From an uncultured Clostridia bacterium (GTDB taxonomy: Bacteria; Bacillota; Clostridia; TANB77; CAG-508): a stretch of DNA of 40,863 bases. This document shows positions 8,484 through 36,164 of the stretch, one piece after another. A model generated the notes under the pieces. That model was not told where the DNA came from and did no database searches. It saw only the letters and a list, made by a program, of their open reading frames with translations. The position numbers and the translations under genes are program-made. Within the stretch, counting starts at the first letter, position 1; each line of letters opens with the position of its first letter. The stretch lies in NCBI GenBank assembly GCA_944393365.1, contig CALXZZ010000003.1:1-40863 (forward strand), read 5' to 3'.

Positions 8484-9734
8484 ATGGAGGACAATAAAAA
8501 CAATGGCTACAAAGTAGTAACACAAAAGAAAGAAAGAAGTAGAACATATAAAATAGTAATGCTAGTAATCTTAGTAGCATTTGTAACATTTTTATTAACA
8601 TCTCTTGGAATGTATCAATATTTTTCTAATGGCTCTGTGTTAGCAAAAACAAGCCTATTTTCAACATCTGATACTGATAAAATAGCAAATACATTAGAAA
8701 AATATAGAGATATAATTGATAAATATTATTTAGGAGAAGTTGATGAAGAAAAACTACAAGAAGGAGCAATAAAAGGATACATTGATGGTTTAGATGACCC
8801 ATATACTGAATATATTTCAAAAGATGATATGCAAGATTATTTAGATGATACTATGGGAAATTTTGTTGGAATAGGAATATATATGGTTAAAGATACAGAA
8901 AATAACAGAATAATGGTCTTATCACCAATAAAAAATAGCCCAGCTGAAAAAGCAGGAATATTACCAGGAGATTATATAACATCAGTAGATGGAAAATCAT
9001 ATACAGGAGACGACTTCCAAACTATTTCAAATGAAATAAAGGGAGAAGAAGGAACAACTGTAAAATTAGAAATACTAAGAGGAGAGGAAACTCTAACATT
9101 TGAAATAACAAGAGAAAATATAACAGTAAATCCAGTAGAAGGAGAAGTTTTAGAAAACAACATAGGATATATAGAATTTTCATCATTTGATGATGGAACA
9201 GCTGAGCAATTTAAAGCAAAATTCGAAGAATTACAAAATCAAGGAATAACATCATTAATAATTGATTTAAGAAATAATGGTGGAGGAATTGTAGATGAAG
9301 CTTTAGAAATTGCAGGATATATTGCAGATAAAAATTCTGTTTTATTATATGAGGTAGACAAAGATAATAATGAAGAAGTAGAAAAATCAAAAAATGATCC
9401 AATAATAAATATGCCAGTTATAATTTTAACAAATGAAAATACAGCAAGTTCATCAGAAATACTTTCAGGAGCTTTAAAAGATTTAGGAAAAGCAAAAATT
9501 GTAGGAACTAAAACTTATGGAAAAGGTGTAATACAAGAAGTTTTAACATTGGCAGATGGAAGTGGATTAAAAATCACAACAGAAAAATATTTGACACCAA
9601 ACAAAACAGAAATAAATGGAATAGGAATAGAACCAGACGAAACAGTAGAATTACCAGACACAGTAGAAAATGTATTAAATGTAGATAGAAGTCAAGATAC
9701 ACAATTACAAAAAGCGATTGAAATGCTAAAATAG
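8484..9734 (+). CDS. ctpA: S41 C-terminal processing protease with PDZ domain
   Basis: N-terminal TM segment, LDDPYT, DLRNNGGG, TASSSEI, TYGKG. Confidence 0.9.
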   Translation: MEDNKNNGYKVVTQKKERSRTYKIVMLVILVAFVTFLLTSLGMYQYFSNGSVLAKTSLFSTSDTDKIANTLEKYRDIIDKYYLGEVDEEKLQEGAIKGYIDGLDDPYTEYISKDDMQDYLDDTMGNFVGIGIYMVKDTENNRIMVLSPIKNSPAEKAGILPGDYITSVDGKSYTGDDFQTISNEIKGEEGTTVKLEILRGEETLTFEITRENITVNPVEGEVLENNIGYIEFSSFDDGTAEQFKAKFEELQNQGITSLIIDLRNNGGGIVDEALEIAGYIADKNSVLLYEVDKDNNEEVEKSKNDPIINMPVIILTNENTASSSEILSGALKDLGKAKIVGTKTYGKGVIQEVLTLADGSGLKITTEKYLTPNKTEINGIGIEPDETVELPDTVENVLNVDRSQDTQLQKAIEMLK

Positions 9735-22212: not shown

Positions 22213-23358
22213 ATGAAAATCAAAGTAATCGCATCAACAAAAGTAGGATATTCATTACCGAAAGAAGAAGCAGTGATTTTTTCAGGAAAATCTGCAGGAA
22301 TTTGCTATTTACCAGATTCAATTGAAACTCTTTTTTCAGAGCCATTAGAAAAGACTCAAAGAAGAGCAAATGGAAACATCAAATCAGGGCATCATAGTGT
22401 ATTTGGACATCCAACATATAATCTTATTTTAGAAGGAGTACCAAAAATTCTTGCAATGATTTTAAATAATGAAAAGATGTACAATACATCTGAAAAATCA
22501 GCAAGATACACAATAATGGAACCATCTATCCAAGAAAAAGAATTATATGAAAAATGGATTGACATATATAAGAATCAGATTTCTAAGAAATATCCTGAAT
22601 TCGATGCGAAAAGAGTAAAGAAATTGGCACAAGAGAATGCGAGATACCTTATAAGTGTGTTTACACCAGCAACTATAATGGAATATACAGTTAATTTTGG
22701 TCAATTAAATTATATTATTAATTGGGCAAAAGATTACATTAAAAATGAAGAAGACACAACATTTTCTTTAAAAATGAAAAAAGTGTTTAAAGATTTTCTA
22801 GAAGCAATTCCAGATTTAGAAATTGAAGGACTAGATTCTAGAGTGAAAAACAGAGCATTTTCTATGTTTGCTAAGAGAAAGAACAGACAAGAAGAATTTG
22901 GTGAGAATTATTGTACAACTTATCTAGCAAGTTTTGCACAACTTGCTCAAGCTCAAAGACATAGAACATTATCCTATGAGATGGCATTACTTGATACACC
23001 ACAATACTACATTCCACCTATAATAAAGGATACTGAGCTGGAGAAAGAGTGGCTTGAGGACATATCTTCTCTACAAGAGTTTTTCCCTCAAGGGATGTTA
23101 GTACAAGTTAATGAAAGAGGAACTATTGAAAATTTTGTTTTGAAATGTATGGAACGTTTATGTGGTTCTGCTCAATTAGAAATTATGGAACAAACAGAAA
23201 AGATAATGAAAAAATATATGGAAGCAGTAAAGGAAAATAAAGAACTTTATAACTACTTGTTACCATATTCTAAAGGAGCACGTTGTACATTTCCTGGCTG
23301 GAAGTGTAATTCACCATGTATTTTTGGTGGAAAAAATGCAATGCATAGAATTATTTAA
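22213..23358 (+). CDS. thyX: Flavin-dependent thymidylate synthase ThyX, long double-domain form
   Basis: GHHSVFGH, SEKSARY, ARYL in the first half; QAQRHRT, YYIPP, ERLC..AQLEI in the second half. Confidence 0.75.
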   Translation: MKIKVIASTKVGYSLPKEEAVIFSGKSAGICYLPDSIETLFSEPLEKTQRRANGNIKSGHHSVFGHPTYNLILEGVPKILAMILNNEKMYNTSEKSARYTIMEPSIQEKELYEKWIDIYKNQISKKYPEFDAKRVKKLAQENARYLISVFTPATIMEYTVNFGQLNYIINWAKDYIKNEEDTTFSLKMKKVFKDFLEAIPDLEIEGLDSRVKNRAFSMFAKRKNRQEEFGENYCTTYLASFAQLAQAQRHRTLSYEMALLDTPQYYIPPIIKDTELEKEWLEDISSLQEFFPQGMLVQVNERGTIENFVLKCMERLCGSAQLEIMEQTEKIMKKYMEAVKENKELYNYLLPYSKGARCTFPGWKCNSPCIFGGKNAMHRII

Positions 23359-23365
23359 CTATGCA

Positions 23366-23397
23366 AACCACTGCTAATTAAAAAATTAGTAGTGGTT
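23366..23397 (+). terminator. Terminator-like hairpin after thyX
   Basis: AACCACTGCTAATT / AATTAGTAGTGGTT. Confidence 0.65.
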
Positions 23398-23449
23398 ATT
23401 ATATTTTTTTAAAATAAATGTATAATTAAACTATAAAGGAGAATAAAAA

Positions 23450-23941
23450 ATGTTAAGCATAATAGTAGCAAAAGCAAAAAACAATATAATAGGAAAAGAA
23501 AACAAACTAATATGGCACATACCAGATGATTTAAAAAGATTTAAAGAATTAACAACAGGTCATAATATAATAATGGGAAGAAAAACATTTGAATCACTAG
23601 GAGGAATATTACCAAATAGAAAACATATAGTATTTACACAAAATCCAGACTTTAAAATTGATAATCCAAATGTGAAAATTGTACATTCAATGTTTGAAAT
23701 TCAAGAATACATTGAAGATAAAGAAGAAAACTTTGTTATAGGTGGAGCAATGATATACAATTTATTAATGCCATATGTAACAAAAATGTATGTAACTGAA
23801 ATTGATAAAGATTTTGATGGAGATACCTTCTTTCCTAAAATTAACACAGAAATATGGAAAGAAATTAGTAGAGAAAAAGGTCCAAGTGATGATAAAATAG
23901 ATTTTAATTATGACTATGTTACTTATGAAAGAATTAAATAG
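23450..23941 (+). CDS. folA: Dihydrofolate reductase
   Basis: IG.EN.L.WHIPDDLKRFK, IMGRKTFES, LPNR, IGGA, GDTFFP. Confidence 0.96.
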   Translation: MLSIIVAKAKNNIIGKENKLIWHIPDDLKRFKELTTGHNIIMGRKTFESLGGILPNRKHIVFTQNPDFKIDNPNVKIVHSMFEIQEYIEDKEENFVIGGAMIYNLLMPYVTKMYVTEIDKDFDGDTFFPKINTEIWKEISREKGPSDDKIDFNYDYVTYERIK

Positions 23942-24190: not shown

Positions 24191-24260
24191 ATTATATAAA
24201 ACATTATACATATAAAAAAATGTTGAGCATGAAGTAAAAAAGAAAATGAGGAGAAAATAC

Positions 24261-24401
24261 ATGATTTGGAGAATTAAAGATAAAAGGAAAACAAAAAAAG
24301 AAATTTTAAAAACTTATGGAATGACAGAATATGACGAATTTGAATTGTTAAAAAGAAGTGGTGCAAAACTGCCAACTGATAATTATGAATTTGTAAAATA
24401 A
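24261..24401 (+). pseudogene. 46-aa ORF resembling a fragment of HipA-N-terminal/HIRAN-associated proteins
   Basis: RBS GAGGAG; MIWRIKDKRKTKKEILKTYGMTEYDEFELLKRSGAKLPTDNYEFVK; family resemblance recalled, not searched. Confidence 0.45.
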
Positions 24402-25952: not shown

Positions 25953-28900
25953 ATGCCAAAAAGAAAAGATATAAAAACAGTATTAGTTATTGGTTCTGGA
26001 CCAATTGTAATAGGACAAGCAGCAGAATTTGACTATGCCGGAACACAAGCATGTTTAGCATTAAAAGAAGAAGGATACAAAGTAATATTAGTAAACTCAA
26101 ATCCAGCAACAATTATGACAGATACAGCAATTGCAGATAAAGTATATATGGAGCCATTAACATTAGAATATGTTGCAAAAATAATTAGATATGAAAGACC
26201 AGATGCAATTTTGCCAGGAATTGGAGGACAAACGGGATTAAATCTAGCAATGCAGTTATATAGAAAAGGAATTTTGCAAGAATGTCAAGTAGAGCTTTTA
26301 GGAACAAGTAGTAAAAGTATTGAAAAAGCAGAAGATAGAGAAAAGTTCAAAGAGTTATGCCAAGAACTAGGAGAACCAGTATTAGAATCAATTATTGCAG
26401 AATCAGAAGAAGAAGGAATAGAGGCTGCTAAAAAGATAGGATATCCAGTTGTTTTAAGACCTGCTTTTACATTAGGGGGAACAGGTGGAGGATTTGCCGA
26501 CAATGAAAAAGAATTGAAGGAGTTAATTAAACATGCATTAAAACTTTCACCCGTAAATCAAGTATTAGTAGAAAAAAGCATTAAAGGATATAAAGAAATC
26601 GAATATGAAGTAATGAGAGACCATAATGATACAGCAATTACGATTTGTAACATGGAAAATTTAGATCCAGTTGGAATCCATACAGGAGATTCAATTGTTG
26701 TAGCACCAAGCCAAACTTTAACTAATAAAGAATATCAATTGTTAAGAGATAGCGCATTAAGAATTATCAGAGCATTAAAAATAGAAGGAGGATGCAATGT
26801 ACAATTTGCTTTAGACCCACTTTCTTTCAATTACTATGTAATAGAAGTAAATCCAAGAGTATCTCGTTCATCAGCATTAGCATCAAAAGCTAGTGGATAC
26901 CCTATTGCAAGAGTTTCAGCTAAAATTGCAGTAGGTATGAGATTAGAAGAAATTCCATTAGCAAATACCCCTGCAAGTTTTGAGCCGGCATTAGATTATG
27001 TTGTTTGCAAAATACCAAGATTTCCATTTGATAAATTCACACTTGCTTCAAATAAATTAAGTACTCAAATGAAGGCAACAGGTGAAGTTATGAGTGTGGG
27101 AAGAACATTTGAAGAAAGCCTATTAAAAGCAGTAAGGTCACTAGAAACAGGAGTATGTCATATCTATAATAAGAAATTTGATAAGATGGAAACAGAAGAA
27201 ATGATGACATATATAAAAGATGGAAGAGATGATAGGATTTATGCTATTGCGGAACTAATCAGAAGGAATGTTGATTTAGGATTAATTTATGATACAACTA
27301 AAATTGATATGTTTTTCTTAGAAAAAATCAAAAATATTGTAGACGAAGAAACAGTTTTAGCTCAAAATGTTGGAAATATAGATGTTCTAAAAGAAGTTAA
27401 GAAAATGGGATTTAGTGATAAATATATTGCAAAAGTATGGAAGAAAAAAGAAGCAGATATTTATCTGTTAAGAAAAGAGCATAACATATATCCAGTATAC
27501 AAAATGATAGATACTTGTAGTAGTGAATTTGAAAGTTATGTACCATATTTTTATTCAACATATGAAGAGGAAAACGAATCAATTGTAAGTAATAAGAAAA
27601 AAATAATTGTGTTAGGAGCAGGACCAATTAGGATTGGTCAAGGTGTGGAATTTGATTATTCGACTGTCCATGCTGTAAAAACTATTAAAGAAGCGGGATT
27701 TGAAGCAATAATTATTAATAATAACCCAGAAACTGTATCAACAGATTATACAACAAGTGATAAGCTATATTTTGAACCATTAACAGTAGAAGATGTTATG
27801 AATATTATCGACTTAGAAAAACCAGAAGGTGTAATTGCAGCATTAGGAGGACAAACAGCTATTAATCTTGCAGGACCACTTTCTAAATTAGGCGTGAAAA
27901 TAATAGGTACAGATGTAAATGCTATTGAAAAGGCGGAAAATAGAGATGCTTTTGAAAGAGTAATGAAAGAGCTAAAATTACTACAACCTAGAGGAGAAGC
28001 GGTAACTAATATAGAAGATGGAATAAAAGTTGCAAAAGAAATAGGATATCCAGTATTAGTTAGACCAAGTTATGTATTAGGTGGAAGAGCAATGCAAATT
28101 GTTTCTAATCAAAGAGCTTTAGAAAAATACTTAAAAACGGCTGTTGAAATAAATACAGAACAACCTGTATTAGTAGATAAATACATTACTGGAAAAGAAT
28201 TAGAAGTAGATGCAGTATGTGATGGAAAAGATGTATTTATACCAGGAATTATGGAACATGTTGAAAAAACAGGAATACACTCAGGAGATAGTATAAGTGT
28301 ATATCCAACGTTTAGTGTTAGTCAAAAAGCAAAAGATACTATTTTAGATTATACTGTAAAATTAGGATTAGGAATTGGGATTGTAGGATTATACAATATT
28401 CAATTTATTGTAGATAAAAATGAAGATGTATATGTTATAGAGGTAAATCCAAGGTCATCAAGAACAGTGCCATTTATCTCAAAATCAACCGGATATTCTT
28501 TAGCAGATATTGGAACATTAGTAATGCTTGGAAAATCTTTGAAAGAACAAGGAATTGATGTTGTATATCCAAAAGAAAAAGAAAAATGGTATGTAAAAGC
28601 ACCAGCATTTTCATTCTCAAAATTATCAGGATTAGATGCAACACTTTCTCCTGAAATGAAATCAACAGGAGAAGCAATCGGATATGATAAGAAATTAACA
28701 AGAGCCCTATACAAGGCACTACAATCTTCAGGAGTTAAACTTGCAAATTATGGAACAGTTTTTGTAACAATTGCAGATAAAGACAAAGAAGAAGCATTGC
28801 CATTAATCAAAAGATTTTATAACTTAGGATTTAATATAGAAGCGACAAAAGGAACAGCTAAATTTTTAAAAGAACATGGAATTAAAACAAGAGTAAAAAA

Positions 28901-29132
28901 GAAAATTAGTGAAGGTAGTGAAGAAATCCTAGATTCGTTAAGAAAAGGTTATGTGAGCTATGTTATTAATACAAGAAATATCGACTCAATAGACCAAGAA
29001 ACAGATGGAACTTTGATTAGAAGATGTGCAACAGAAAATAATATTCCAACTTTGACAGCATTAGATACTGTTAGAGCAGTTTTAGATGTATTAGAAGAAA
29101 TTACTCTTGGAATTTCAACTATTGATGAATAA
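25953..29132 (+). CDS. carB: Carbamoyl-phosphate synthase large subunit
   Basis: [18 protein letters not shown], two ATP-grasp halves ([18 protein letters not shown]), C-terminal MGS-like domain. Confidence 0.97.
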
Positions 29133-29240
29133 TAAGAAAATTTATTAAAAAATAATCAAGAGAATTAAATAAATATGCAAAAAAACTTTACATAAACATA
29201 AAAAGTAGTATAATAGTTTTGTTATATTTGGAGGATTGAT

Positions 29241-30731
29241 ATGGAAAAGTTAGAAAGAGAAGTAAAAATTTTAGGTGTAAATAAAATTGAATCAGAAAGA
29301 ATGCTAAGACAATTAGGAGCAGAAAAAGTAGAAGAATGCCTGCAAAAAAATTATGTATATGACTTACCATCAATATATGCTAGGTTTTGTGATTGCCTTT
29401 TGCAATTAAAAAAAGTGAATAAACCATATGAGTTTGAAATATGTAGAAATAAATTACAAGGAGTCTTAAATGAAATAGATAATCTAACGACAGGTGAAGA
29501 ACAGAGAGAAATAAAAAGAACTGCTTCAACAAGATATCTTGTAGATTTATTAAACAGAACAAACAATGAAGACTTATTAGATAGATTTTCTAATAAATCT
29601 ATAGTAGAAATTATAAAAAAATATGGAATTAATCCTAATAAGTGGGTAAGAGTTAGAGAAACAAATGGAAGAACGACAATAACTATAAAACATATACTTA
29701 ATCCAGATTTACAAAAAGATAGTAAAGAAGAAATACAAAGAGTGATGGAAACAGAAATGGAAGTTCCATCAATAGAAGAAGCTAATAGCATATTAGAACA
29801 GTTAGGATTTAGTTTTAGAAATTATCAAGAAAAGAATAGAGCAACATATAGTTTAGATGGTGTGGAAGTTGATATTGACTCGTGGCCACTAATTCCTCCA
29901 TATGTAGAAATCGAGAATGACTCAGATGAATTAATACAAAGTACAATAGAAAAATTGAGTTTACAAAAACATGAAATAGTTTCTTGTAATACTGCAGATG
30001 TATATAAGAAATATGGGATAGATTTATATGCTTTTAGAGAATTAAGGTTTACTCAAAGAAAAAATGAAGAAATAGGAGGAGAAAAAATGAAAGAACTTGT
30101 AGTAGCGACAACAAATCAAAATAAAGTAGATAGGATAAGAAAATTATTAAAAGGTTTAAATTATAATATAGTATCTTTAAAAGAAGCAAGTAAAACCAAT
30201 ATAGAAGAACCAAAGGAAACCGCAATAACACCAATTGATATTGCAATTGAGAAAGCTTTGCATTATGCTAATTACTTACCTAATAATACAATTATATTAT
30301 CACAAGATGATACAATTGAATTTGAAGGGATAGAAGAAGGAGATAATCCTGGCATGCATATAAAGGAGCCAGTTATAAGAAAGTATGGAAAGTTTACAGA
30401 TGAATTAGCAGCAGAGTATTATAAATCACTAGCAGATAAATATGGTGGTTCAATACCTATGAGATTTAGATATGGACATGCAATTGCAATAAAAGAAAAT
30501 AAAGAAAGAGAGATAAAAAAAGTATTTGGAGCAGAGTCATATTTAAATGTGAGATTAGTTAATAAAATCTATAAATTAGAAGAAGTTCCAGGATATTTTT
30601 TGGCAGCACTAATGGAGGCTAAAATAAATAATAAGTGGGTACCATATAATGACTTAGACGAGGAGACACTAGTAAAGCTAGACAAGGACTTATATTCTTC
30701 AATTACATTATTATTGAAAAATGTTGAATAA
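29241..30731 (+). CDS. CYTH (triphosphate tunnel metalloenzyme) domain fused to a divergent Ham1/ITPase-like domain; internal start at 30087
   Basis: EREVK (ExExK), WVRVRE, ITIK, ETEMEV, QEKNR, VDIDSW..YVEIE; then VVATTNQNK..ET..IAIEKA..SQDD..PG; internal GGAGG RBS before ATG 30087. Confidence 0.8.
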   Translation: MEKLEREVKILGVNKIESERMLRQLGAEKVEECLQKNYVYDLPSIYARFCDCLLQLKKVNKPYEFEICRNKLQGVLNEIDNLTTGEEQREIKRTASTRYLVDLLNRTNNEDLLDRFSNKSIVEIIKKYGINPNKWVRVRETNGRTTITIKHILNPDLQKDSKEEIQRVMETEMEVPSIEEANSILEQLGFSFRNYQEKNRATYSLDGVEVDIDSWPLIPPYVEIENDSDELIQSTIEKLSLQKHEIVSCNTADVYKKYGIDLYAFRELRFTQRKNEEIGGEKMKELVVATTNQNKVDRIRKLLKGLNYNIVSLKEASKTNIEEPKETAITPIDIAIEKALHYANYLPNNTIILSQDDTIEFEGIEEGDNPGMHIKEPVIRKYGKFTDELAAEYYKSLADKYGGSIPMRFRYGHAIAIKENKEREIKKVFGAESYLNVRLVNKIYKLEEVPGYFLAALMEAKINNKWVPYNDLDEETLVKLDKDLYSSITLLLKNVE

Positions 30732-30759
30732 ATATAGTGAATAGAAAGGGGAATAAACA

Positions 30760-31732
30760 ATGAAAAAGAAAAAATTTACTCATTAGTATAATTTTGATAT
30801 TAATAATAATATTAGTTTTTATGTTTCAAAGAACTGAAAATAGTGAAAGTTTGGAAGATACATCATTAAGGTTAAAATGGATTTGCCAAGCACAATTTGC
30901 AGGTTATTATACAGCAAATGCAGAAGGATATTATAAAGAGGAAGGATTAAAAGTAACAATAGATCCAGCTGGACCAAATATATCTCCTATTCAGTCAGTT
31001 GCAAGTGGAATAAATGAATTTGGTATAGCAGGTGCAGAACAAGTTATATCAGCAATAGATAATGGAGTTCCAATTGTAGCAATTGCAGTTATCTATAGAG
31101 AAACTCCAGAAGCATTAACATCAAAGAAATCTTTAAATATTACTGAACCAAAAGATTTAATAGGTAAAACTATAGGTGTAGTTTATGGAGATGACGAAAA
31201 TTTATATAGACTAATGTTAAAAAAGAATGGAATAGATGAAAACAGCATAAATGAAGTTCCAGCTCTTACAGGAGTAAGTCAGATATTAACAGATAAAGTT
31301 GATGCAAAAATGGCGTATGAAATGAATGATGCAGTTTTATTAGAATTAGAAGGTGAAGAAGTAAATGTATTAAAATTTAGAGATTTTGGAGTAAAAGTTT
31401 ATGCCGATACTATTTTTACAACAAGGGAAATGATAGAGAAAGAACCAGAAAAAGTTAGAAAATTTTTAAAAGCATCTATAAAAGGATGGAAAGAAGCAAT
31501 AAATAATCCGGAAAAAGCTATAAATCAATTATTAGAAACAAATCCATCATTAAACTATGATCATCAATTAGGATATTTAAAAGGAAGCATACCAATCATT
31601 TTAACTGATAAAAATATAGGATATTCAGAAGAAGCAGTATGGCAAGATATGATAAATAATTTATATGATTTTGGAACAAAAAAAAATAAAATAGAAGCTA
31701 ATCAAGTATTTACGAATAAGTTCTTAGAATAA
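30760..31732 (+). CDS. NMT1/THI5 (ThiY/SsuA)-type ABC substrate-binding protein with an apparent 1-nt frameshift near the start
   Basis: LRLKW..QAQFAGYY.A...GYYKEEGL, PKDLIGKTIG, YADTI, FLKASIKGW; the RBS-supported ATG 30760 is out of frame with the body by one base. Confidence 0.8.
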
Positions 31733-32478
31733 TGAGTTATATAGAAATAAAAAATGTATCAAAATCATATAAAGATAAAAAGGTTCTTAAAAATATATCA
31801 TTAAAAGTAGATAAAGGAAAATTTGTATCATTTATAGGTTCTTATGGTTCAGGTAAAACAACATTGTTAAAAATGATATCCGGACTTGAGAAAATAGATG
31901 AAGGTCAAATTTTAATAAATGGATTTTCACCAGAGAAATTAAAAGAAAAATTAAAAATGGGATTTGTATTTCAAGCTCCAATGCTTTTGCCGTGGAGAAA
32001 TGTAATTGACAATATTACATTGCCTTCAGAAATAAATGGAGAAAAAGCCGTAGAAGAGGCTAAAAAACTTTTAAAATTAGTTGATTTAGAATCAAAAGAA
32101 AAATGCTATCCAAAAGAATTATCAGGTGGAATGCAACGAATAGTATCTATATTAAGAGCATCAATAATGAAACCAAGTGTTTTATTATTAGATGAACCAC
32201 TATCTTCAATAGATGAAATAAACAGAGATGATTTACATGAGAAGTTAATAAAAATTCACCAAAAAAACAAACAGACAACATTATTAGTAACTCACTCAAT
32301 ACACGAAGCGGTTTATCTATCTGATGAAATATATGTTTTGGGAGGAAATCCTACAAGAATTTTAAGAAGAATTATGCCTAAAAAACCAAGAAGAATAGAA
32401 AATAAATTTAGTTCTAATACAATGATTGAAGTGGCTGAAATAAGAGAAGAACTTCGTAAGGCGGTGAATAATTTATGA
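31732..32478 (+). CDS. ABC transporter ATPase (TauB/SsuB/ThiZ type)
   Basis: GSYGSGKTT, FQAPMLLPWRNV, LSGGMQ, LLLDEP, VTHSIHEAV. Confidence 0.92.
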   Translation: MSYIEIKNVSKSYKDKKVLKNISLKVDKGKFVSFIGSYGSGKTTLLKMISGLEKIDEGQILINGFSPEKLKEKLKMGFVFQAPMLLPWRNVIDNITLPSEINGEKAVEEAKKLLKLVDLESKEKCYPKELSGGMQRIVSILRASIMKPSVLLLDEPLSSIDEINRDDLHEKLIKIHQKNKQTTLLVTHSIHEAVYLSDEIYVLGGNPTRILRRIMPKKPRRIENKFSSNTMIEVAEIREELRKAVNNL

Positions 32479-33197
32479 AAAAAACTATGGTTACAATACT
32501 TTTTATGATTATATTGTGGATGATGATTTCGTTTGTATTTCATCCAGCAGAATATCTATTTCCAAGTTTAGACAGTGTAGCAAAGGCTTTTATTGAAAAT
32601 TATCAAGACTTCTTGGAAAATACGATGTATACTATAATTGAAGTAATAGTTGGTTTTGGAATAGCAGTCGTATTGGGACTATTTCTAGCAATAATAACAG
32701 TTCATTATACTCATTTGGAACAAGTATTAACATTTAGTGCAATCATATTAAAAACAATACCAATTATAGCAATAGCACCTTTACTAGTTTTGTGGTTTGG
32801 ACATGGTATGGGCTCAAAAATTGCTGCAGTTGTTATTACAAGTTTTATTCCAATATTAATTAATGTATTAAGTGGTTCCAAAGAAATATTGTATAAATAT
32901 AAAAATATAATAGGGCTATATAATATGAATAAGAAACAAAAAACTAGATATTTTATTTTACCAGGAATAAGACCATATTTGATGTCATCTCTTAAAATAT
33001 CTAGTTCACTGGCAATTGTAGGAGCATTGGTCAGTGAACTTATTAGTGCCAATAAGGGAATAGGATATTTAATAATGTCAAACTATTATTCAATGAATAT
33101 AGCAGGAGTTTTTGTTTGTATTATATTATCTAGTTTAATAGGAATCGGAATTTATTGCATATTTGATAAATTAGAGAAAAAGTTGAATTATGTTTAA
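32475..33197 (+). CDS. ABC transporter permease (TauC/SsuC/ThiX type)
   Basis: TIPIIAIAPLLVLWFG.G, GALVSELI...GIGYLI; ATGA-type overlap region with the ATPase. Confidence 0.9.
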   Translation: MKKTMVTILFMIILWMMISFVFHPAEYLFPSLDSVAKAFIENYQDFLENTMYTIIEVIVGFGIAVVLGLFLAIITVHYTHLEQVLTFSAIILKTIPIIAIAPLLVLWFGHGMGSKIAAVVITSFIPILINVLSGSKEILYKYKNIIGLYNMNKKQKTRYFILPGIRPYLMSSLKISSSLAIVGALVSELISANKGIGYLIMSNYYSMNIAGVFVCIILSSLIGIGIYCIFDKLEKKLNYV

Positions 33198-33313
33198 GAA
33201 TTAGAAAGTTTTGTGATTTTATAGATAGTAAATACTTTTTTAAACTTGAGTATTGATGAATAGAATTAGTATAGTTGAATTTTTCAAATTTGATAAAAAT
33301 GACAAAAATGGTA

Positions 33314-33371
33314 TTGACAAACAATACAAAAAGATATATGATATAACAAAATTAGGAATTATTCCTAATTT
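33314..33371 (+). promoter_or_regulatory. SigmaA promoter with a palindromic PerR/Fur-type operator
   Basis: TTGACA(33314)-17-TATGAT; perfect 11-1-11 repeat AAATTAGGAAT-T-ATTCCTAATTT (33349-33371) between the -10 and the RBS. Confidence 0.75.
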
Positions 33372-33384
33372 GAAGGAGAGATTT

Positions 33385-33771
33385 ATGAACAACTATTCCA
33401 AACAAAGAGAAGTTATATTAGACATTATAAAAAACAATCCTATACATCCAACTGCTGAAGAAATTTATAAATTAACAATAAAAAAAGAGCCTAAAATCAG
33501 CAAAAGTACAGTGTATAGAAATATCAATATCCTAGTAGATTTGAAAAAAATTAATAAAGTAAAAATGTCAGTAGGACCAGATAGGTATGATTACGTATAT
33601 AAAGAACATTCACACATGATATGTGAAAAATGCGGGAAAATATTTGATTTTTACTATAATTTTAATAAAGATGATATTTCTAAAAACTTGAAGCAACAGC
33701 TTAAAGAAAATATTATTATAGATAATATAACGATTTATGGAATATGTGAAGAATGTAAATCAAAAAATTAA
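33385..33771 (+). CDS. perR: Fur-family regulator, probably PerR
   Basis: SKQRE, HPTAEEIY, STVYRN, HSHMICEKC, CEEC; next to rubrerythrin; start moved to ATG 33385. Confidence 0.8.
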   Translation: MNNYSKQREVILDIIKNNPIHPTAEEIYKLTIKKEPKISKSTVYRNINILVDLKKINKVKMSVGPDRYDYVYKEHSHMICEKCGKIFDFYYNFNKDDISKNLKQQLKENIIIDNITIYGICEECKSKN

Positions 33772-35213: not shown

Positions 35214-36164
35214 ATGGAAAAACATAAGATAGCAGTCGAAAAGCTAGAAGAAGAAAGAAAAAACAAAAAAATACCAAAAGAAATATCACAAGAAATATTG
35301 AAAAAAATATTTTTAAATCTAATAATTGCAATAGCTATAATGATATATTTTGCTATTTTAAATTATTCATATGATAAAATTAATCAAGATAATCTAGTAA
35401 ATATAATAGAAATATGTTCAGGAGTTTTATTATTAATTAGTTTAATATTACTAGAAGTATCATACAAAAAAGATAGTGGAACACTTGCAATTACAGCAAT
35501 TGAATTTTTAGTATTAACATTCCACAGCTTACTTATAATACATATAATCACAAGATATGAATATCAATTTCAATTTTACATATTGACATCTTCATATACA
35601 ATTGCAATATATTATGTGCTAAAATCAATAGTATTATATACAAAAGGAAGAAGAGAATATCTAAAAGGATTAAGTGACATATCAGAAATCGTAAAAAAAG
35701 AAGAACCAATTAAGAAAGAAGCTAAAAAGCAGAATCCATCAGAAGAAGAAAAAAAGAAGATGCAACACAAACCAAAATCAGCAAAAGTAGGCAAAAAGAA
35801 AAAAGATACAGAAAACAAGCAAGAGGTAAAGAAAAAATCTAAAAATAGTAAAAAAGTAAAAAAAGATGAAGAAAAAATTGAAACAGTAAAAGAGAAAAGT
35901 AAAAAAGAAAATACTGAAGAGAAAGATAAAAAAGAAGAAAAAGTAGAAGCTAAAAAACCACAAACTAAGACAACAAAAAAAGCCAGTACTAGAAAAACAA
36001 AAACTAAATCAGAATCAAAAGATAAAACAGAGAAAATAGATGACAAATCAGAAAAAGAAAGAAAAGTGAAAGATAAAGAAGTAGAAGAAAAAGATGAAAA
36101 GAAACCAACTAAAAGGAAAACTAATAAGAAAACAACTAAAAAAGAAGAAACAATAAAAAAATAG
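35214..36164 (+). CDS. Hypothetical 4-TM membrane protein with a long Lys/Glu-rich tail
   Basis: Four hydrophobic segments, then roughly 160 aa of low-complexity charged sequence. Confidence 0.75.
   Translation: MEKHKIAVEKLEEERKNKKIPKEISQEILKKIFLNLIIAIAIMIYFAILNYSYDKINQDNLVNIIEICSGVLLLISLILLEVSYKKDSGTLAITAIEFLVLTFHSLLIIHIITRYEYQFQFYILTSSYTIAIYYVLKSIVLYTKGRREYLKGLSDISEIVKKEEPIKKEAKKQNPSEEEKKKMQHKPKSAKVGKKKKDTENKQEVKKKSKNSKKVKKDEEKIETVKEKSKKENTEEKDKKEEKVEAKKPQTKTTKKASTRKTKTKSESKDKTEKIDDKSEKERKVKDKEVEEKDEKKPTKRKTNKKTTKKEETIKK

Follow-up and report, generated by a model that had tools for sequence, protein, structure and literature searches.

The window analysed here, a stretch of 40,863 nucleotides with a G+C content of ~28%, is contig C3 of the metagenome-assembled genome (MAG) G000 of an uncultured Clostridia bacterium (contig CALXZZ010000003.1 of assembly GCA_944393365.1). 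The MAG comprises 1.6 Mb in 130 contigs and is 91% complete. The locus of interest consists of four linked open reading frames (ORFs) on the forward strand, located between carB (25953–29132) and a Fur-family (Fur/PerR-like) gene (33253–33771) that is followed by rubrerythrin and rsmE genes. The first ORF (29241–30731, 496 codons) combines a CYTH domain with a Ham1-like domain. It is followed by the genes of an ATP-binding cassette (ABC) importer: an NMT1/ThiY-type binding protein (30794–31732, 312 aa, with a TTG start in a frame open from 30764), an ATPase (31732–32478, 248 aa) and a permease (32475–33197, 240 aa), where the cassette has its right edge. At the left edge of the island lies a promoter-like site on the same strand (TTTACA–16 nt–TATAAT, 29187–29214), identified by consensus match only (11 of 12 positions).

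An earlier note, made from the letters of the window, had described four linked genes between carB and a perR-type gene, and their coordinates match the ORF list. The domains it named were recovered by Pfam (CYTH, Ham1p_like, NMT1, ABC_tran with 105.7 bits and BPD_transp_1 with 84.2 bits), but what it took for the first gene appears to be two genes in frame. It had also reported neither thiamine genes nor a thiamine pyrophosphate (TPP) riboswitch in the window, and both searches agree with this. The Rfam scan of the window found a tRNA alone and no riboswitch, and Pfam found no thiamine-synthesis genes among 30 further window ORFs, the remaining genes having core functions.

When the 496-aa product of the long ORF was searched against 5.8 billion proteins, 169 matches were obtained, each covering no more than 59% of the ORF. 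The matches to the CYTH half were nearly all stand-alone proteins of 272–291 aa with up to 96% identity; these homologues share a conserved tail (...QRENEGIDRED), the end of which falls exactly at residue 282. The second half, taken from M283, had 92 homologues, all of them stand-alone proteins and almost all 212–225 aa long with 98–100% query coverage. The M283 codon is ATG, and GGAGG precedes it at a spacing of 7 nt. On the forward strand, the ORF can be divided into a long-form CYTH gene (29241–30086, 282 codons), the stop codon of which is gone, and a Ham1/ITPase-fold gene (30087–30731, 214 codons), whose ATG and Shine-Dalgarno sequence both lie inside the long ORF. The same fusion was found nowhere else among the 169 + 92 homologue clusters. 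CYTH plus Ham1 is not a conserved architecture: the halves are separate in all homologues, and their union is best described as a probable deletion scar limited to this lineage.

Other longer relatives of the window CYTH protein were observed, namely P0022 (a GNAT fusion, 465 aa), P0112 (a radical SAM fusion, 544 aa) and P0061 (338 aa), which carries a Ppx-GppA annotation. The 3′ end of the long-form CYTH gene seems, from these sequences, prone to read-through fusion with the next gene.

The closest genomic orthologue of the CYTH protein was found in genome G169 (92% amino acid identity). At the nucleotide level, positions 29183–30095 match positions 8606–9523 of the G169 locus L061 with 90.2% identity (blastn), homology to this relative starting at window position 29183. 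The rest of the locus resembles other genomes. The block of Ham1-like and importer genes (30064–33184/33194) shares 93% nucleotide identity with L013 (genome G163) and L014, MAGs of other species in the same genus, and its flanks are unrelated to theirs; blastn homology to both begins at window position 30064. In three-way alignments, the window tracks the CYTH tail of G169 to ...ATAG and then the L013/L014 leader of the Ham1-like gene. In L013, this leader is the sequence between the stop codon of a phosphoribosyltransferase (PRTase) gene and the Ham1-like ATG, and it includes GGAGG. The deletion junction was placed by these alignments at 30064–30086 (forward strand, with GGAGG at 30075–30079), and an imperfect repeat of 12–14 nt at the junction is common to both parental sequences.

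All or part of the region 29700–31000 was found in 20 public sequencing runs (15 studies), most of which carry the label chicken gut; in 19 of them, no fewer than half of the words sampled from the region were present. In all four of the other runs compared, representing four studies, single contigs cross position 30087 without an indel. The fusion is a genuine allele, found in all four other samples examined, and the junction is not an assembly error, since it recurs without an indel in the assemblies of four other studies.

The CYTH half matched Pfam CYTH with 27.2 bits (cut-off 23.2) over residues 134–242 only. The ExExK motif (E5, E7, K9) and residues R137, R139, K150, E170, E172, E223 and E225 do not vary among 15 sequences, that of the window included. 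The AlphaFold2 (AF2) model (mean predicted local distance difference test, pLDDT, 84.4) has the eight-stranded tunnel fold of the CYTH/triphosphate tunnel metalloenzyme (TTM) superfamily, and its C-terminal residues 267–282 are predicted to be disordered (pLDDT < 50). This tail would serve as a linker in a fusion product, according to the model. The best Foldseek matches were 7ns9, 1yem and 2dc4 (template modelling (TM) score on target 0.71–0.79, probability 1.00), a Sulfolobus TTM and Pyrococcus proteins, and thiamine triphosphatases appeared at ranks 16, 22 and 23. The protein failed the equivalog cut-off for class IV adenylate cyclase CyaB (TIGR00318, 35.2 vs. 57.95 bits). Two features set it apart from known CYTH/TTM enzymes: a helical insert of ~80 residues (45–126), and the recurrent partnership of the long CYTH form with a viperin-like radical SAM enzyme. 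The long form is present in 15 of 338 genomes of the genus. In another genome (G036, locus L009, 748–2610), a canonical Ham1 gene (97 bits), a short CYTH gene (177 aa) and a NUDIX gene stand in a row; judged by sequence, this is an independent case of Ham1 adjoining CYTH.

The second half scored 37.3 bits on Pfam Ham1p_like (cut-off 22.5), covering profile positions 1–84 of 186 only. Its AF2 model (pLDDT 91.7) matches the Ham1/RdgB/ITPA fold over the whole length with TM scores of 0.6–0.7 at 11–20% identity; for 3tqu, 1k7k, 2q16 and 1vp2 the scores were 0.61–0.74 over 211–221 aligned columns. In hhalign comparison with the canonical RdgB of the same genome, 90 N-terminal columns aligned motif by motif, and the C-terminal base-recognition lobe of the RdgB type found no alignment in the Ham1-like protein. 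The NCBIfam RdgB equivalogs were far below their cut-offs (22–31 vs. 145–234 bits; 22.2 vs. 145.35 bits for TIGR00042). Both domains of the long ORF retain every residue invariant in their families. The Ham1-like protein is predicted to be a divergent pyrophosphatase of the Ham1/ITPase fold. It shares with RdgB/Ham1/ITPA the whole-length fold, the motifs of the N-terminal lobe and a Pfam Ham1p_like score above cut-off; it differs in its low identity, in profile coverage of the first 84–90 positions only, and in that part of its family sits in a cassette with importer, PRTase and kinase genes. Elsewhere, the genome encodes a Ham1-HD fusion as well as a canonical RdgB (189 bits), and the Ham1-like gene is therefore regarded as an extra, specialised paralogue.

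A second cluster of nucleotide-hydrolase genes was observed on contig C29 of the same MAG (L107, 199–3487), with NUDIX, a 408-aa Ham1+HD fusion and Ppx/GppA. A Ham1 fragment of 142 aa (L108, 1426–1854) lies near this cluster.

In L013 and L014, the shared block is preceded by genes for a 240-aa P-loop protein and a 205-aa PyrE-like PRTase, and a serine recombinase gene follows it. The P-loop protein matched Pfam AAA_17, and an Atlas feature search led to adenylate-kinase-like clusters, which we take as a lead only; a search of solved structures gave no match below E 0.2. We refer to it as the nucleoside monophosphate (NMP)-kinase-like protein. The PRTase scored 75–80 bits on pyrE models, under their cut-offs. 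In G169, by comparison, the CYTH gene has a stop codon; 1 nt later a 269-aa viperin-like radical SAM gene begins, followed by a LysR gene. The radical SAM protein matched the PADLOC pVip model with 156 bits (E 2.8e-46) and failed the NCBIfam viperin_w_prok cut-off (150.5 vs. 180 bits), which is why it is called viperin-like. After the LysR gene, 127 nt are 98% identical to the ribosome-binding site (RBS) and first 113 nt of the L013 kinase-like gene. This homology stops just upstream of a DDE transposase gene, and synteny of G169 with the window resumes from rubrerythrin rightward. In the simplest reading of these sequences, G169 lost the right part of the island at an insertion sequence element and the window genome lost the middle. 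No kinase–PRTase match, no viperin-like orthologue (best 28% identity) and no PyrE above cut-off was found in the window's own genome.

The left part of the island recurs elsewhere. The CYTH and radical SAM genes are adjacent in G169, in G283 and in G038, which belongs to another family, and they are fused in P0112; the LysR gene follows in both G169 and G038. Viperin-like radical SAM genes occur in 39 of the 338 genomes of the genus, and an orthologue of the Ham1-like gene in eight. The radical SAM loci that were fetched (L068–L097) mostly lie beside LysR genes, and many are part of open frames of ~400 aa. The two such frames scanned contained a fused REC domain (L070) and a fused PfkB domain (L084). 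At a further radical SAM locus, L069, a ToxN-family gene was seen upstream.

Divergence between species was gauged with the rsmE and BipA proteins, of which BipA was too conserved to inform; carB gave no usable nucleotide match in G163 or G169. Island proteins are 92–96% identical between species, whereas RsmE is only 60–66% identical (G163/G169). In L013, L014 and L016, the cassette is bordered by serine recombinase genes. The high identity of the island relative to rsmE, together with the recombinases, suggests that the island is horizontally mobile.

The spread of the right-hand cassette was surveyed at 14 orthologous Ham1-like loci in species-representative genomes, one of which ends too early to judge, and at the best 33 (L112–L144) of 80 metagenome loci. 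The 47 metagenome loci left out (L145–L191) had at most 55% identity, E values of 4e-12 or weaker and partial query cover. The importer lies directly downstream of the Ham1-like gene, with kinase and PRTase upstream, in four of the 14 genome loci. Among the 33 metagenome loci, a binding-protein gene lies downstream of the Ham1-like gene in 12, PRTase lies directly upstream in 16, and several more are truncated by contig ends. The earlier note had made its proposal depend on co-occurrence with the transporter elsewhere, which was observed for the Ham1-like part at these 4 genome and 12 metagenome loci. The complete order kinase–PRTase–Ham1–binding protein–ATPase–permease is present in L013/L014, L016, L022, L112, L114–L116, L118, L124, L134 and L135. 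By identity class (93–94%, 78%, 66%, 61–62% and 59–60%), the cassette occurs in at least five lineages; many loci of the 66% class are near-identical human-gut contigs and hence not independent.

Every component of the island is present at L016: a LysR–radical SAM ORF (598 aa), a kinase–PRTase ORF (418 aa), the Ham1-like gene, the importer and, after the permease, a short CYTH gene (188 aa) and a serine recombinase gene. In loci of this type, LysR–radical SAM lies upstream of the cassette. The L016 radical SAM protein is 26% identical to that of G169 over its full length, and the L016 CYTH is 30% identical to the window CYTH over the C-terminal half. CYTH thus recurs with the cassette as well, as the short gene of L016 and in G169, where CYTH, radical SAM and LysR are followed by the kinase fragment. 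The locus L135 holds a whole island of the L016 type, in which the match to each gene is split into several shifted segments, probably because the contig comes from a long-read assembly rich in errors. At L022 (368–4501), genes for LysR, NUDIX, an HhH-GPD glycosylase, a methyltransferase and a member of the uracil-DNA glycosylase (UDG) superfamily run in the opposite direction beside the cassette. These neighbours look like a DNA-base-repair set and may bear on the identity of the base. We found no published account of this gene set (viperin with CYTH, LysR and PRTase/kinase, or ThiY with PRTase), nor any relevant publication on the pairing of viperin with CYTH, and the underlying island appears to be undescribed.

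The importer genes of the window are closely related to those of L013, with amino acid identities of 93% for the binding protein and 96% for the ATPase. The body of the binding protein is intact (Pfam NMT1, 196.9 bits). The nearest solved structures to its L013 orthologue were 4nmy (E 1.1e-29) and ThiY 3ix1 (E 3.2e-20), followed by THI5. In NCBIfam, the ATPase and permease were nearest to SaoA/SaoP and Ssu/Tau models, all below cut-off. The start of the binding-protein gene is altered. An orphaned start (30760–30786, forward strand) consists of an ATG at 30760 with a good Shine-Dalgarno sequence, eight codons and a TAG stop, with an A6T3 tract at 30769–30777. The frame that is open from 30764 encodes the rest of the membrane anchor, and its first start codon is the TTG at 30794. 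Relatives have an intact gene (324 aa in L013), and the window is 2 nt shorter in the A/T tract. The tract varies by run: in X2, two additional A and one substitution bring the gene in frame, and X3, X4 and X5 have one extra T, which leaves it out of frame. The importer of this genome is thus probably crippled, judging from its sequence. The out-of-frame tract could represent decay after loss of the partner enzymes, which we favour with low certainty, or a variable switch. The dN/dS values of the remaining genes against intact relatives are 0.07–0.19 (0.10–0.12 for both halves of the long ORF), a comparison that includes the partner lineage with intact genes; any relaxed selection would therefore be recent.

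Taken together, we consider it about 70% probable that the 496-codon ORF represents two genes joined by a deletion in a mobile island and that the locus is a remnant of this island. The ancestral order would have been CYTH, viperin-like radical SAM, LysR, NMP-kinase-like, PyrE-like PRTase, Ham1-like, binding protein, ATPase and permease. A slippage-type deletion of ~3.2 kb, a size inferred from gene lengths in G169 and L013, would have occurred between imperfect repeats of 12–14 nt, one within the final codons of the CYTH gene and the other within those of the PRTase gene. It would have taken the four middle genes (radical SAM, LysR, kinase and PRTase) along with the CYTH stop codon, the frame being kept by chance. 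CYTH would now read in frame into the Ham1-like gene. The RBS and ATG of the latter survive, and therefore a fusion protein and a separate Ham1-like protein are both possible.

In the intact pathway, a substituted pyrimidine-like base would enter through the importer and be turned into a nucleotide by the PRTase and kinase, the radical SAM enzyme would modify this nucleotide, and the Ham1-like and CYTH enzymes would hydrolyse triphosphate forms. The position of kinase and PRTase before the Ham1–importer unit is expected if the imported base becomes a nucleotide. The module for importing and processing a nucleobase proposed in the earlier note therefore stands in part: the Ham1-like/importer unit does occur with kinase and PRTase, but the window itself has no PRTase, kinase, radical SAM or regulator gene. 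This genome would keep the two hydrolases and a probably crippled importer, that is, a remnant locus.

Several observations weigh against this interpretation. The pathway logic derives from family-level annotation only, and the substrate assignments are putative. The intact nine-gene order was pieced together from G169 (left part and kinase fragment) and L013 (right part), and it was not seen in one piece in this lineage. With the MAG at 91% completeness, kinase, PRTase and radical SAM genes are not found rather than proven absent. The Ham1-like gene stands alone in 9 of 13 judgeable genome loci and is clearly solitary in 9 of the 33 metagenome loci (L125–L133). On the tree, cassette-linked Ham1-like proteins do not separate cleanly from solitary ones, as the two interleave and the backbone is poorly resolved; the solitary and interleaved forms indicate that the enzyme has no need of the importer. 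The binding-protein gene is in frame in one run (X2). The dN/dS values are low for every remaining gene, which speaks against decay, and all four other runs compared carry the fusion. What remains of the island may still serve the cell, and the fusion itself may be neutral or even adaptive.

The latter view would make the long ORF an adaptive bifunctional CYTH-Ham1 enzyme acting on one imported triphosphate substrate, and the four genes a complete working module. We regard this as rather unlikely. It would account for the retention of all family-invariant residues in both domains, for the low dN/dS in both halves and for the identical junction in four runs from four studies, and the disordered CYTH tail could act as a linker. 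Natural read-through fusions of CYTH (P0022 with GNAT, P0112 with radical SAM) and the adjacency of canonical Ham1 and short CYTH in G036 are also in its favour. However, no second fused form exists among the homologue clusters, the internal Shine-Dalgarno sequence and ATG are untouched, and the dN/dS values include the partner lineage with intact genes. Moreover, the event that created the fusion cost the locus four genes whose partnership is conserved elsewhere, and in the window, as in three of the four other runs, the start of the binding-protein gene is out of frame.

An anti-phage system on a mobile element, either a pVip-like maker of chain terminators or a Kongming-like nucleotide sensor, is less probable still. 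The PADLOC pVip match (156 bits) of the G169 gene beside CYTH, its viperin_w_prok score of 150.5 bits, the serine recombinases flanking the cassette and the fold shared with KomB are consistent with such a role. In addition, nucleotide kinases lie near 12% of bacterial viperin genes, according to a preprint (10.1101/2023.09.13.557418). The island of the relatives likewise pairs a viperin-like radical SAM enzyme with an NMP-kinase-like protein. It differs from prokaryotic viperin systems in adding LysR, a PRTase, two triphosphate hydrolases and a solute importer. The G169 protein is under the viperin cut-off of 180, the radical SAM gene is missing from the window, and the binding-protein-dependent importer and LysR argue for metabolism. 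A phage origin was rejected, as a scan of viral contigs with the Ham1-like alignment gave no relative. The suggestion in the earlier note of a sensor like KomB also fared poorly. The Ham1-like protein shares the ITPase fold of KomB (ranks 31–34, TM 0.54–0.62, 11–12% identity), but ordinary ITPases rank ahead of it. Neither half of the long ORF nor the binding protein has a PADLOC match, and no SIR2, KomA or KomC partner is present, the neighbours being carB, the importer genes, Fur/PerR and rubrerythrin.

It is similarly doubtful that the importer is an ordinary salvage transporter of the ThiXYZ kind for 4-amino-5-hydroxymethyl-2-methylpyrimidine (HMP) or its N-formyl aminomethyl analogue (FAMP), with CYTH as a thiamine triphosphatase; this explanation ranks slightly below an anti-phage role. 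The binding protein does belong to the NMT1/THI5 family (196.9 bits), with ThiY 3ix1 and THI5 among its nearest solved relatives, the three-component ABC layout is that of ThiXYZ, and thiamine triphosphatases occur among the CYTH fold matches. In contrast to ThiXYZ, the importer has no TPP riboswitch in the window or in L013, L016, L022 and L061 (Rfam gathering thresholds) and no thi genes nearby, so that the alternative of a riboswitch-controlled ThiXYZ, considered in the earlier note, was not supported. Its conserved partners are instead the Ham1-like gene, a PyrE-like PRTase and an NMP-kinase-like protein; the latter two are not known to play a part in thiamine salvage. Archaeal TTM triphosphatases also match the CYTH fold far better than thiamine triphosphatase does.

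That the long ORF is an artefact, whether of sequencing (a homopolymer error) or of assembly (a chimeric contig), is the least likely explanation of all and very improbable: the genome is a MAG of 130 contigs and one A fewer in the A6 run before the internal ATG would give a stop at codon 283, but L013 and L014 share the same run before the same ATG, contigs from four other runs and studies bridge the junction and agree on it, and the ~12 nt shared at the breakpoint would be too short to mislead a k-mer assembler.

Further features were observed in the vicinity of the island. In a 51-codon ORF at 24246–24401, just upstream of carA, the last ~32 residues match the C-terminus of a 116-aa ORF in G169 (L061, 5235–5585; blastn 94% over 104 nt). 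It resembles a truncated gene remnant and suggests more rearrangement around the island. A 381-aa protein encoded at 22213–23941, directly before a dihydrofolate reductase gene, has a weak Thy1/ThyX match (55 bits, residues 27–166); its length and this pairing are, we presume, atypical for ThyX. On the other side, a 316-aa ORF (35214–36164) has N-terminal membrane segments, a long Lys/Glu-rich low-complexity tail and no Pfam match, and is kept beside rsmE in G169 (63% identity over 142 residues).

As for the island as a whole, its genes look like a variation on known nucleotide-salvage and house-cleaning clusters. A bolder view, which we consider less likely than not, is that the intact island, with its LysR regulator, viperin-like radical SAM enzyme, CYTH, NMP-kinase-like protein, PyrE-like PRTase, divergent ITPase and ThiY-type importer, encodes a new pathway, in which a pyrimidine-like base from the gut would be converted to a nucleotide and given a viperin-like modification. 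Such viperin-type chemistry, fed by an imported substrate, would serve metabolism or act as a chemical weapon. The two triphosphate hydrolases, dedicated to this pathway, would adjust the phosphate state or shield the cell's own polymerases, and the window would be a natural knock-out of the middle.

The locus calls for caution in annotation: a striking two-domain gene is here probably a deletion scar, and its annotation as a designed bifunctional enzyme would mislead. Behind it appears to be a recurring mobile set in small-genome gut Clostridia, in which divergent ITPase-fold and CYTH enzymes are tied to a pyrimidine-type importer and which also joins a PyrE-like PRTase, an NMP-kinase-like protein and viperin-like radical SAM enzymes. 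The natural variants provide genetic contrasts, with this genome lacking the middle, G169 lacking the right half and loci of the L016 type being whole. Provided that its genes form a single pathway, the set would place viperin-like and TTM enzymes in a metabolic context and suggest substrates that could be tested on a ThiY-type binding protein with a role other than thiamine salvage.

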